Below are positions 25,919-28,678 of a stretch of DNA of 64,000 bases, piece after piece. Position 1 is the first letter of the stretch; each line of letters opens with the position of its first letter. Location of the stretch: positions 737,768 to 801,767 of the forward strand of contig DATEMU010000015.1 of NCBI GenBank assembly GCA_035275405.1, in the 5' to 3' direction. The notes under the pieces are model-generated. The model searched no databases and was not told where the DNA came from. It saw only the letters and a list, made by a program, of their open reading frames with translations. A program made the translations under genes and the position numbers. The stretch is from Phycisphaerae bacterium. Lineage in GTDB: Bacteria > Planctomycetota > Phycisphaerae > UBA1845 > UTPLA1.

Positions 25919-27313
25919 ATGAAAATCCGGCGCTCGTTCGCTCTCAGCATGACCCTGTCGACCGTTCTCGCCACCTTTGCGCCCACCGCTTCGGCCGCCC
26001 CCATCGATACGACAGCCGACGCCGTCGTCGGCCAGGCGGATTTCGCCGGCAAACTGGCTAACCGGGGAGGCGCCGCGGCGAGCAACGTGACGCTGAACGA
26101 ACCCCGCGGTGTCGCCATTGATCCCGTGACCGGCCGTCTTTTTGTCGCCGATGCGCTCAATAATCGCGTCCTGAGCTGGCAGACTCCTGAGTCGTTCACG
26201 AACGGCAAAAACGCCGACCTCGTAATCGGCCAGGTGAACTTCGTTCTGAACCTCTGCAATCGCAGCGCCAACGTCCTGGATCCCCCAGCCCGAAATACCC
26301 TCTGCGAGCCGCGAAGCGTCGCGGTAGATTCGGCGGGCCGCCTCTACGTCGCGGACTTCGGCAACCATCGCGTCCTGCGATTTGATCCTCCCATCGTCAG
26401 CAAAATGGACGCCGATCAGGTCTTCGGTCAGGCCGGCAGCTTTGTCACCAAGAATCAAGGAATCGTCCCGACCGCCGACAATCTCGGCAACGCTGAGGGC
26501 GTCGCCGTCGATGGCGAGGACAACCTGTTCATCACCGACTTGTTCAATAGTCGCGTCCTCGGTTTCAATCAGCCCGCACTGCCCACCGAGGACACGACCG
26601 CCGACGCGGTCTTCGGACAGGCGAACTTCACGTCCGGCATGGCCAACAGAGGCGGCAATCCCGGGGAGAAGACGCTTCAACGCCCGGAGACGAGTTGTTT
26701 CGACGCTGAAGGTAACATGTATGTGGCGGACAACCAGAACAATCGCGTGCTCCTTTATCTGGCCCCGCTGGCCACCGACATGTCCGCCACGCGCGTCTAC
26801 GGCCAGCCCAACTTCTCCACGAACGGTGCTAATCAGGGCGGACTCACCGCCACCAGTATGAGCGGGCCCGTCGGCGTCGCGATCGATCCGATCACGGGAA
26901 ATCTTTTCGTCGCCGACGCGGGGAACAGTCGTATCCTCGAATTTGCCGATCCCAAAAACGACAGCACCGCCGATCGCGTCTTCGGCCAGGGCGGTGACTT
27001 CACGACCGGCACCGCCAACAAAGGCGCGCCGGCCGGTCAGGCCTCAGCCGATACGCTCAACGACGTGGGTGGCGTGGCCTTCGACGCCGCCGGTCGTCTC
27101 TATGCCGGCGATCGACTCAATCACAGAATACTGCGCTACGACGCGCCGCCGCCGGCAGAACCTCCGCCGCCGCCCCCGCCGCCGCCGCCTGCGGCTGACG
27201 CGTGTGGCGCCTGCGGTCAACTGGGCCCGGGCATGGCGGCGATGATGCCGATGACACTGGTGGGACTGGCCGCCTGGCGGCGCGTACGACGCAAACGATC
27301 GGGCGCGGACTAA
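25919..27313 (+). CDS. secreted NHL-repeat beta-propeller protein (paralog 1) with C-terminal Cys/TM/Arg tail
   Basis: Signal MKIRRSFALSMTLSTVLATFAPTASA; repeated ...G(V)A(V/I)D..G.L(Y/F)VAD..N(N/H)RVL; tail PPPPPPPPPPAADACGACGQLGPGMAAMMPMTLVGLAAWRRVRRKR. Confidence 0.75.
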   Translation: MKIRRSFALSMTLSTVLATFAPTASAAPIDTTADAVVGQADFAGKLANRGGAAASNVTLNEPRGVAIDPVTGRLFVADALNNRVLSWQTPESFTNGKNADLVIGQVNFVLNLCNRSANVLDPPARNTLCEPRSVAVDSAGRLYVADFGNHRVLRFDPPIVSKMDADQVFGQAGSFVTKNQGIVPTADNLGNAEGVAVDGEDNLFITDLFNSRVLGFNQPALPTEDTTADAVFGQANFTSGMANRGGNPGEKTLQRPETSCFDAEGNMYVADNQNNRVLLYLAPLATDMSATRVYGQPNFSTNGANQGGLTATSMSGPVGVAIDPITGNLFVADAGNSRILEFADPKNDSTADRVFGQGGDFTTGTANKGAPAGQASADTLNDVGGVAFDAAGRLYAGDRLNHRILRYDAPPPAEPPPPPPPPPPAADACGACGQLGPGMAAMMPMTLVGLAAWRRVRRKRSGAD

Positions 27314-27361
27314 GTTTGCAGCCGAGGTTGGCTCCTTGTCGCCGTATCAGAGGATCAACAC

Positions 27362-28678
27362 ATGCCGTTCAACGACATTCGTGTCATTGCGTTCGCGCTG
27401 CTCAGTGCATCAGTCGCCGCAACGCCATCCTTCGCCGCCCCCGGCGATACCATCGCCGACGCCGTCCTCGGCCAGTTCCGCCTGGACGACAATGTCCCCA
27501 ACCAAGGCGGTCTCTCCCTGCAATTCAGTCTCAATGAGCCGTACGGCGTCGCCATTTCACCGTCCGACGGTCGCCTCTGGGTCGCCGACCGGGAGAACCA
27601 TCGCGTCCTGTCCTGGCCGGACCCGGCGTCATTCGTCAATCGCGAGGCCGCCGACATCGTCCTCGGCCAGGAGGGCTTCTTTACTAATCTGGCCAACAAG
27701 GGCATGGCCGGTCCACTGGCCGACACCTTGAACTCGCCCAAGACACTCGCCCTCGATGCGGCTGGTCGGCTTTATGTCGCCGATACCGGCAACTTCCGCA
27801 TCCTTCGCTACGACCCGCCGATCCTCTCCGCCGAAGACGCGGTGCAGGTCTTCGGCCAGCCCGACTTCGGCACGGCGCTGCAGAACTTCAACGGGCCCAG
27901 CGATGAGAGCATCGGCAGCGCGGACGGTGTAGCCGTCGATGCGATCGGCAACCTGTACCTCGCCGACGGCGCCAACCATCGCGTCCTCATCTTCAACACC
28001 CCGGCCGCGGATGACACGGTCGCTGACACGGTTCTTGGCCAGGTGAACTTCACGAACAACGACGTAAACGCCGGCCTGGGAGACCCCGGGGAGACAACTT
28101 TCAACACCCCTGTCGGCGTGGCCGTCGACGCGGCGGGCAATCTGTACGTCTGCGATCAGGGGAATAACCGCGTGCTGCTCTTCACGCCGCCGTTCGTCAA
28201 CAACGAGGAGGCCGTCAAGGTCTTCGGCCAGCCCAATTTCATCACCGAACTCCCCAACTTCGGCAGTCTGAGCGCGACCAGCCTCTTCGGTCCCATCGCC
28301 GCGGCGATCGACCCCGTGACCGACCGGCTGTACATCGCCGACACCGGCAATCATCGCATCCTGGAATATGAAGACCCGGTCGCGGGCGACACGGAGGCGG
28401 ATCGCGTCTTCGGTCAGATCATCTTTACCACCGGCGTGGCGAACAAAGGCGGCGACACGATGGCCGATACGGTGAACGGCCCGACGGGCGTTGTGTTGGA
28501 TGACGAGGGCAATTTGTATGCGGCCGACCGGCTGAACAACCGCGTCCTCCGCTACGACGCCACCGGCGGCGGCGGCCTGCCGCCCGCCTGCGGCGCCTGC
28601 GGCGCGGGATTGACGCCGCTGATGCCGTTGGCCGTGGTGGGGCTCATCGTCGCTCGAAGGATTCGGCGGCGGAGTTGA
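27362..28678 (+). CDS. secreted NHL-repeat beta-propeller protein (paralog 2) with the same C-terminal tail
   Basis: Signal [25 protein letters not shown]; NHL repeats; tail [37 protein letters not shown]. Confidence 0.75.

Follow-up and report, generated by a model that had tools for sequence, protein, structure and literature searches.

A Cysteine-Containing C-Terminal Tail on Tandem NHL-Propeller Proteins as a Probable Sorting Signal of Planctomycetota

Two Adjacent NHL-Propeller Genes and Their C-Terminal Tail

A contig of a Phycisphaerae bacterium (DATEMU010000015.1; the window is the whole 64,000-nucleotide stretch analysed here) contains two adjacent genes, designated A and B, whose products are predicted to be secreted and end in the same kind of short, cysteine-containing tail. 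Both genes lie on the same strand, 48 nt apart, upstream of mnmG/gidA and downstream of the genes for a DMT_6 membrane protein and a metallophosphoesterase. A preliminary description, drawn from the letters alone, had placed two open reading frames (ORFs) with a shared C-terminal tail at this site. Both observations hold, the former in the ORF list and the latter with a hidden Markov model (HMM) of the tail from which the window had been left out.

25919..27313, + strand: gene A, predicted secreted NHL-propeller protein with a C-terminal Cys-type sorting tail; 464 amino acids (aa) plus stop, from the ORF list
25919..25996, + strand: predicted Sec-type signal peptide of A, MKIRRSFALSMTLSTVLATFAPTASA followed by AP; read from the sequence (basic N-terminus, hydrophobic core, ASA-A cleavage site)
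25997..27145, + strand: NHL beta-propeller passenger domain of A; five stretches matched by Pfam NHL, 49% identity to B
27146..27202, + strand: low-complexity linker of A, PPPAEPPPPPPPPPPAADA; hypervariable in length and composition among homologues
27203..27310, + strand: putative sorting tail of A, CGACGQLGPGMAAMMPMTLVGLAAWRRVRRKRSGAD; 26.1 bits with the leave-out tail HMM, E 1e-7 among window ORFs
27203..27217, + strand: Cys box of the A tail
27245..27253, + strand: conserved MP[LM] of the A tail
27278..27301, + strand: Arg cluster of the A tail
27362..28678, + strand: gene B, predicted secreted NHL-propeller protein with a C-terminal Cys-type sorting tail; 438 aa plus stop, from the ORF list
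27362..27436, + strand: predicted signal peptide of B, 25 aa, followed by AP; read from the sequence, with an N-terminal helix at residues 4-18 in the AlphaFold2 (AF2) model
27437..28564, + strand: six-bladed NHL beta-propeller of B; AF2 model and Foldseek
28565..28588, + strand: short Gly-rich linker of B, GGGGLPPA; disordered in the AF2 model
28589..28675, + strand: putative sorting tail of B, 29 aa; 37.6 bits with the leave-out tail HMM, E 2e-11
28589..28609, + strand: signature CGxCGxG of the B tail
28625..28627, + strand: invariant Pro of the B tail
28655..28675, + strand: Arg cluster of the B tail

The two products are paralogues with 49% identity, and each has five to six NHL repeats (Pfam PF01436; E 3.8e-31 for A and 4.6e-40 for B). 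The product of gene A begins with MKIRR and matches, at 100% identity, the database entry P0032, which bears the name "NHL repeat-containing protein [Phycisphaerae bacterium]". B is 100% identical to P0001, encoded on an 826-kb contig of a Phycisphaerae metagenome-assembled genome (MAG), where the protein identical to A is the neighbour of P0001.

The AF2 model of B, built on 40 homologues, has a mean predicted local distance difference test score (pLDDT) of 88.9. Its 24 strands form six four-stranded blades between residues ~30 and 400, which places the protein in the NHL family. Residues 404-421, covering the linker and the Cys box, are disordered (pLDDT below 50), and residues 420-437 form a terminal helix. 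The top PDB matches found by Foldseek were the NHL domains of Thin, TRIM71, and TRIM2, the designed protein Pizza6, and the sensor of M. tuberculosis PknD (E down to 2e-24). Like B, the PknD sensor domain (PDB 1RWI) is a six-bladed NHL fold located outside the cytoplasm. However, PknD is anchored by an N-terminal kinase and a transmembrane segment, whereas in A and B the propeller is the whole passenger, to which a C-terminal tag is attached. Both are probably ligand-binding surface proteins.

The layout of the tail is the same in A and B. A low-complexity linker leads into a CGxCG box; then come a short hydrophobic helix, in which a proline is conserved, and a cluster of arginines. The C-terminus of A reads PPPAEPPPPPPPPPPAAD-ACGACG-QLGPGMAAMMPMTLVGLAAW-RRVRRKRS-GAD. 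The leave-out HMM was built from 46 tails of other genomes, with the window and its two closest relatives excluded. B scored 37.6 bits and A 26.1 bits with this model, and the next best of the 386 window ORFs scored 3.4 bits. The match of A and B to the tail family is far beyond chance, and no further ORF with such a tail is present in the 64-kb window.

The proline within the hydrophobic segment (MPL or MPM) is as diagnostic as the Cys box. When the register is anchored on this invariant residue, the cysteines of B fall at P-12 and P-9, as is usual in the family (CGxCGxG-x4-[MA]P), whereas those of A fall at P-15 and P-12, with a leucine at P-9. A full-length protein alignment instead pairs the two cysteines of A with those of B by means of a gap. 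Because the Pro-anchored register differs, the identical "ACGACG" of the two proteins is partly coincidental. An orthologue of B (P0002, 76% identical) and a protein that resembles A (P0049) are both listed on a 4,252-bp contig, and the tandem pair thus seems to be retained in a related genome. The tail of P0049 is in the canonical register (CALCGPG-MTAM-MPM), which suggests that the shifted Cys pattern of A is a recent change.

Conservation of the Tail among NHL Proteins

The same kind of tail ends 76 of the 120 best homologues of B. The consensus of 50 non-redundant tails is xxxxCGLCGxGxxxxMPLxLxGxxxxRRxxRR, in which the first cysteine and the proline are invariant and the residues G, C, G, and G, the second cysteine included, are conserved in at least 90%. 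Among 40 full-length homologues that are 45-55% identical to B, residues C410, C413, and P422 are invariant, like the core residues of the propeller. The linker that precedes the tail is, by contrast, hypervariable and may consist of poly-Pro, poly-Gly, long N/D/G-rich stretches, or TSP3 repeats. NHL homologues without the tail are mostly longer proteins, and the two of them that have a named source come from other phyla (Binatus and Myxococcales).

Looser variants of the tail were observed beside the canonical one. The form "PGCCAPG...P...RR" is present on DUF7453 and PPC proteins, and further forms are "SGCASFG..P..RRIRR", "PGCSMGVPAG..RR", and "CCGGGLP..". Such variants are found at L176 13801-19783, L181 7788-9860, and L127 12125-12814, and in the proteins P0006/P0008. 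Most of them fall below the threshold of the tail HMM; therefore, the true family is wider than counted.

The Tail on Unrelated Passenger Proteins

A degenerate DNA pattern (CGxCGxG-x4-MP-hydrophobic) matched the window once, at the tail of B, with 0 matches expected by chance. A scan with this pattern over a sample of one genome per GTDB species gave at least 120 loci. Among the matches listed, 24 loci contained 26 true tails, which were in frame and ended long ORFs; 10 of the 26 were on NHL proteins and 16 on non-NHL proteins. When a slightly tighter pattern was applied to metagenomes, 42 loci were obtained with about 30 true tails (5 on NHL proteins and about 25 on others). The passengers recognised by Pfam were Kelch with Ig domains, Beta_helix (right-handed), TSP_3, DUF7453, and FG-GAP_2, and some passengers had no Pfam match. 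The tail is thus carried by at least six unrelated passenger architectures.

A search independent of the DNA pattern led to a similar picture. A 35-position tail profile was compared with 1.84 billion (1.84e9) representative proteins and found 42 cluster representatives at E <= 1e-3, of which 37 were new proteins, only 3 of these being NHL-like. Every single-tail match ends at or near the C-terminus. The median distance between the end of the match and the C-terminus of tail proteins is 1 residue. A strongly hydrophobic N-terminal segment is present in 93 of 102 full-length tail proteins. Unrelated passengers and several copies per genome are what is generally expected of a modular sorting domain, and both were found. 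The tail behaves as a modular C-terminal domain, separate from the NHL family, with a putative sorting or anchoring role. Such a role had been proposed from the two proteins alone, and the proposal is strengthened by the modularity of the tail, its passengers of at least six architectures, and its location at the extreme C-terminus.

Distribution in Planctomycetota

All 24 true genome loci, among the matches listed, are from Planctomycetota MAGs. Their labels are Phycisphaerae, Phycisphaerales, Planctomycetota, and "uncultured Planctomycetaceae", with Phycisphaerae being the most frequent, and the tailed NHL homologues with a named source likewise belong to Planctomycetota. Several MAGs have multiple loci, with up to 6 tails among the matches listed in MAG CAYMXF01 (L016, L089, and L117). 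The DNA pattern covers the M-P subclass only, so these counts of lineages and copies are lower bounds. In control loci from other phyla (827 kb of false positives), the tail HMM gave only partial matches of 14-20 bits at the site forced by the pattern, whereas Planctomycetota loci gave full-length matches of 24-54 bits, including tails that had not been selected by the pattern. The tail was found here only in Planctomycetota, mainly Phycisphaerae, to which every taxonomically labelled true case belongs.

Comparison with Known Sorting Signals

No Pfam family covers the tail of A or B. In NCBIfam release 20, only the MYXO-CTERM models recur on the tails. The model TIGR03382 ("GC_trans_RRR", cut-off 15.85) gave 12.3 bits for A and, for B, 14.0 bits with a 41-aa query or 16.3 bits with a 33-aa query; it was reported for 13 of the 50 tails, with a best E of 3.6e-5, and is borderline for a minority. 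The model TIGR03901 (cut-off 20) gave 13.1 bits for B and was reported for 7 of the 50 tails. One homologue bears the JGI label "TIGR03382 family". The comparison with known CTERM models, which the preliminary description had recommended, therefore points repeatedly to MYXO-CTERM, but at scores at or below cut-off, which do not amount to membership under the curated HMMs.

Four tripartite signals with a cysteine, namely MYXO-, JDVT-, Synerg-, and CGP-CTERM, were described by Haft, who paired each of them with a CPBP/Rce1-like "Mrt" protease (10.1101/2023.06.07.544157). The MYXO-CTERM signal is limited to Myxococcota plus Bradymonadales, has no proline or charged residue in its helix, and often contains GCGC (10.1101/2023.06.07.544157). 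The myxosortases that go with MYXO-CTERM, which are MrtX, MrtC, and MrtP, belong to the CPBP family. It was shown experimentally that MrtX cleaves the MYXO-CTERM of TraA in a Cys-dependent manner (PMC11980579). The tail of A and B has the same tripartite form, that is, a signature, a hydrophobic helix without a spacer, and an Arg cluster at or near the C-terminus, and it has the invariant cysteine, often with a second one. Both have a Gly/Cys signature, an Arg-rich end, many substrates per genome, and low-complexity linkers, and they share similar passengers (TSP3 repeats, parallel beta-helices, propellers, and Ig-like domains). Internal copies in fusion proteins are also common to both, and a single internal MYXO-CTERM is known in MXAN_5598 (PMC11980579). 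Unlike MYXO-CTERM, however, the tail has CGxCGxG rather than GCGC, its hydrophobic segment contains an invariant proline, and all labelled sources are Planctomycetota rather than Myxococcota or Bradymonadales; no myxosortase was seen in the loci examined. Because of the two cysteines (CGxCG), the invariant proline, and the other phylum, the tail falls outside MYXO-CTERM yet belongs to the same design class.

Other signals resemble the tail in part. Synerg-CTERM (TIGR04564), the partner of MrtS, is also Cys-containing and tripartite, is found in one phylum only, and has one cysteine and an invariant proline (10.1101/2023.06.07.544157), the latter within the transmembrane segment. It differs from the tail in that its single cysteine ends a Ser/Gly cluster, the signal is shorter, its helix is Leu-rich, and its hosts are Synergistota; its model found 1 of the 50 tails (E 0.0034). 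GlyGly-CTERM, which is cleaved by rhombosortase, an intramembrane protease, likewise has a Gly-rich signature abutting the helix and then arginines. However, it does not require cysteine, and among the 20 families listed there was no match of its model to the 50 tails. PEP-CTERM, the substrate of exosortase, resembles the tail in being a tag at the C-terminus of proteins that diderm environmental bacteria secrete. The tail differs in lacking a PEP motif, in the position of its proline, and in its invariant cysteine, and the matches of TIGR02595 are at noise level (2 of the 50 tails, E 0.15 or worse). For both A and B, ScyF, an NHL protein with PEP-CTERM, is the best of the full-length NCBIfam relatives (E 1e-20), so that a homologous passenger uses another C-terminal signal in another lineage.

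Planctomycetes are not mentioned in the myxosortase papers (10.1101/2023.06.07.544157; PMC11980579), and no such signal in Planctomycetota is described in the literature found by full-text searching (titles and abstracts). The tail can be read as a Planctomycetota variant of the Cys-containing tripartite sorting signals, covered by no curated model and closest to, but distinct from, MYXO-CTERM.

Polyproteins with Internal Tails

Several related loci contain single ORFs with 2 to 6 secreted modules and a length of up to 2,743 aa.

L045 789-6557 (same as L166): polyprotein of 1,923 aa with four tails, then a GH5-like module with a lipoprotein-like signal
L057 511-4605: polyprotein with two tails
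L117: internal tails in two ORFs
L175 7452-15683 (P0121): polyprotein of 2,743 aa with five to six tails, called as one gene

After each internal tail, the reading frame runs through the Arg cluster into a further hydrophobic segment, which resembles a signal peptide and has an AxA-type site, and then into another domain. The topology of such a chain would be coherent only if the tail helix and the next signal peptide formed a hairpin. This arrangement fits a helix that runs from the outside to the inside, arginines in the cytoplasm, and a next signal that runs from the inside to the outside. Cleavage at the internal tails would most easily account for such chains, which suggest proteolytic release. 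Planctomycetota, chiefly uncultured Phycisphaerae, may even own a C-terminal sorting system of their own, with the "CGxCG-Pro" tail and a dedicated intramembrane protease, that also matures polyproteins. In this tentative scheme, which we put forward at somewhat less than even confidence, hairpins of a tail and the following signal peptide would let the sorting enzyme and signal peptidase cut a chain of up to six surface proteins into separate anchored proteins.

Candidate Processing Enzymes

The flanks of the tail loci were read over 8-21 kb. Clustering of the ORFs across these loci gave no shared candidate and only clade-level synteny (ispG; ClpX/DUF1570/CcsA). One real CPBP gene was seen, in L058, which is an unrelated false-positive locus. 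A Pfam search of 18 neighbours with multiple transmembrane (TM) segments found transporters, glycosyltransferases (PMT_2, GT4, and Wzy_C), cytochrome b, CLC, and kinases, none of which recurred in the way expected of a sorting enzyme. The same applies to an RseP-type M50 protease adjoining ispG. A VKOR-DsbA gene beside one NHL orthologue was dismissed as lineage-specific synteny.

A gene encoding a rhomboid domain with TPR repeats adjoins tail genes in some of the loci below.

L176 19954-21183: rhomboid+TPR gene
L179 and L181-L193: rhomboid+TPR gene (rhomboid at 10001 and following)

In L176 this gene lies 170 nt downstream of a run of four genes for Cys-tail proteins and shares their strand, and in L181-184 its orthologue comes directly after a DUF7453 protein with the variant tail PGCCAPG..MVPL..RR. 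The products, of ~410 aa, are conserved as a group among MAGs of Phycisphaerae and Planctomycetota, and some of the contigs concerned also carry tail proteins. Their best NCBIfam rhomboid match is rhombosortase TIGR03902 (31.9 bits, with a cut-off of 84), compared with 25 bits for GlpG. The gene is part of a conserved block with a 187-aa membrane protein, ThiF, small ORFs, and an AhpC/TSA-like protein. Of six rhomboid contexts, only those of the related lineages L176 and L181-184 have a gene with a tail or variant tail upstream. The other sampled contexts have a CBM20 esterase, ribosomal protein L21, or DUF1844 upstream and no tail gene within 10 kb. The adjacency of the rhomboid to tail genes looks clade-specific. 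As the enzyme acting on the tail, we rate a CPBP-type protease as more likely than a rhomboid and an exosortase as the least likely.

Proposed Function and Alternative Explanations

It is likely that A and B are Sec-exported six-bladed NHL propellers with a modular, tripartite, Cys-class C-terminal sorting or anchoring domain, for which a CPBP-type protease would be the first candidate and a rhomboid the second. The signal peptide, as it reads from the sequence, would carry the propeller across the cytoplasmic membrane. The tail helix would then stop the transfer and leave the Arg cluster in the cytoplasm, as the positive-inside rule and the topology of the polyproteins suggest. By analogy with MYXO-CTERM and the myxosortase MrtX, a CPBP/Rce1-like glutamic protease, the conserved cysteine would be modified, probably by lipidation, and a dedicated intramembrane endopeptidase would then remove the helix together with the Arg cluster. 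The mature protein would remain attached to the cell envelope or surface.

Several points weigh against this explanation. We infer the cleavage, the lipidation, and the surface location of the tail proteins alike. When the window, 49 true-tail loci, and ~360 kb of other Planctomycetota loci were screened with a crude motif regex (EExxxR...FxxxH...HxxxN), no gene resembling CPBP was found. More generally, the regex and the Pfam search of multi-TM neighbours yielded no sorting enzyme for the window and about 1 Mb of related loci. The dedicated, planctomycete-specific pathway that had been envisaged earlier keeps its support from the lineage, as the labelled true cases are all Planctomycetota, but lacks its enzyme in the loci searched. 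In 14,000 RefSeq proteomes, Haft's myxosortase core model (NF040914) had no member outside Myxococcota and Bradymonadales (10.1101/2023.06.07.544157); the MAG lineages of the tail were probably absent from that set. The hydrophobic stretch is short, at 13-17 residues, and the invariant proline and small residues would suit a rhomboid substrate too. Finally, the distribution in Planctomycetota depends on how the MAGs are labelled and on scans that yielded lower bounds or were biased towards the pattern applied.

The tail might instead be a permanent, uncleaved C-terminal transmembrane anchor that holds the propeller on the periplasmic face, with CGxCG serving for a disulfide, metal binding, or acylation. 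A helix followed by an Arg cluster is in itself the architecture of a stop-transfer anchor, no protease was found in the loci examined, and the polyproteins could in principle be large polytopic membrane proteins. However, a plain anchor does not need an invariant cysteine and proline at fixed spacing on unrelated passengers, and the hydrophobic segment is short and kinked by the proline. A signature without a spacer is typical of signals cut by membrane-embedded enzymes, and the characterised tripartite signals of such form are all cleaved (10.1101/2023.06.07.544157; PMC11980579). We consider a permanent anchor rather unlikely. The same assessment, or one slightly less favourable, applies to a sorting signal whose enzyme would be an intramembrane serine protease of the rhomboid family, as rhombosortase is for GlyGly-CTERM, and not one of the CPBP/myxosortase type. 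Small residues and a helix-breaking proline are classic features of rhomboid substrates and count for such an enzyme. The rhomboid gene adjoins Cys-tail genes in L176 and a variant-tail gene in L181-184, its product belongs to a group conserved in Phycisphaerae and Planctomycetota, contigs with tail proteins included, and this product is closer to rhombosortase TIGR03902 (31.9 bits) than to GlpG (25 bits). On the other hand, that score is far under the cut-off of 84, the gene sits in a conserved block that mostly has no tail gene nearby, no tail matched the GlyGly-CTERM model among the 20 families listed, and an invariant cysteine has no role in the rhombosortase mechanism.

It is very improbable that the tail is a divergent PEP-CTERM, another exosortase- or archaeosortase-type signal, or a sortase signal. 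The tripartite layout and the conserved proline, which is typical of exosortase-type signatures, would agree with this idea, NHL relatives such as ScyF use PEP-CTERM, and the PEP_CTERM and VPLPA/PVV-CTERM models gave marginal matches to 1-2 of the 50 tails (E 0.15 or worse). These matches are at noise level, however, and there is no PEP, PGF, or LPXTG motif. The proline is placed midway along the hydrophobic segment instead of at its start, which leaves only ~10 residues up to the Arg cluster, and no exosortase-like multi-TM gene was found near the tail genes. The likeness to PEP-CTERM/exosortase or LPXTG/sortase signals suggested at the outset thus gives way to MYXO-CTERM as the nearest class, whose enzymes are CPBP-type intramembrane proteases (10.1101/2023.06.07.544157; PMC11980579). 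There is hardly any room left for the view that the tail is a functionless trace of a recent tandem NHL duplication. A and B are indeed adjacent paralogues with 49% identity, and restriction of the motif to these two proteins had been named as the result that would speak for such an origin. Instead, the tail was found in 76/120 NHL homologues, on many unrelated proteins, and several times per genome, and it is conserved at 45-55% overall identity while the linkers are not.

Other Features of the Window and Related Loci

The Pfam scan of all window ORFs covered the 25 commonest of 82 families. A low-GC island at window positions 22000-24300 (GC 0.50, compared with 0.62-0.65 around it) lies between ispG and the metallophosphoesterase gene. 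It contains two genes that look like a type VI retron defence pair, which was probably acquired horizontally.

22582..22977: helix-turn-helix (HTH) protein in the low-GC island; PADLOC HTH_VI, E 2.6e-13
22977..23999: reverse transcriptase in the low-GC island; PADLOC RT_VI, E 1e-50
31014..33017, - strand: 668-aa membrane protein with SPFH/Band 7 domain
33137-33303, - strand: c-di-AMP riboswitch upstream of the 31014..33017 gene; Rfam RF00379, 63 bits

Large secreted proteins with a dockerin-like, Ca-binding C-terminal motif (DxNxDGxxDxxD..F) are encoded in the window at 9893-11476 (+), 52887-58307 (-), and 58404-63359 (+). The first of them scored 26.5 bits with Dockerin_1 (9893..11476); the proteins of about 1,650 and 1,800 aa with a dockerin-like end had no Pfam match. 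With this module beside the Cys tail, the exported proteins of the genome bear C-terminal modules of at least two kinds.

Pairs of a planctomycete-type extracytoplasmic function (ECF) sigma factor (PF07638) and a large Ser/Thr kinase (TPR or WD40) adjoin genes for big secreted or tail-bearing proteins.

Window 6939-9993, - strand: putative ECF sigma/kinase pair
L175 2154-7333: ECF sigma/kinase pair
L176 927-5148: ECF sigma/kinase pair
L178 4780-9281 and 14888-20086: ECF sigma/kinase pairs

Such a pair is apparently present in the window too, with a putative assignment to specific ORFs. The proximity suggests local regulation of surface proteins by these pairs. Genes for PMT_2 glycosyltransferases (GT-C, ArnT/PMT-like) are located near tail-protein genes in L023 (2-1483) and L136 (7479-8180), and another is in the window at 2864-4660 (-), 21 kb from the tail genes. 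These enzymes could glycosylate the low-complexity linkers, or their proximity could be due to chance.

Significance

The surface proteome of a lineage is defined by its C-terminal sorting tags. Through such tags, new housekeeping proteases have been discovered repeatedly, namely sortase, exosortase, archaeosortase, rhombosortase, and myxosortase. A Cys-type tag in Planctomycetota would extend the MYXO-CTERM class beyond Myxococcota, Bradymonadales, some Proteobacteria, Synergistota, and Thermococcales. In a search for the enzyme by phylogenetic profiling, the tail profile would serve as a clean query. The polyproteins with internal tails are the least expected element and provide a natural test of tail cleavage. 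In the MAGs of Phycisphaerae that are abundant in wastewater and soil, the tail HMM would mark the surface proteins that are now just "NHL repeat-containing" or "hypothetical".

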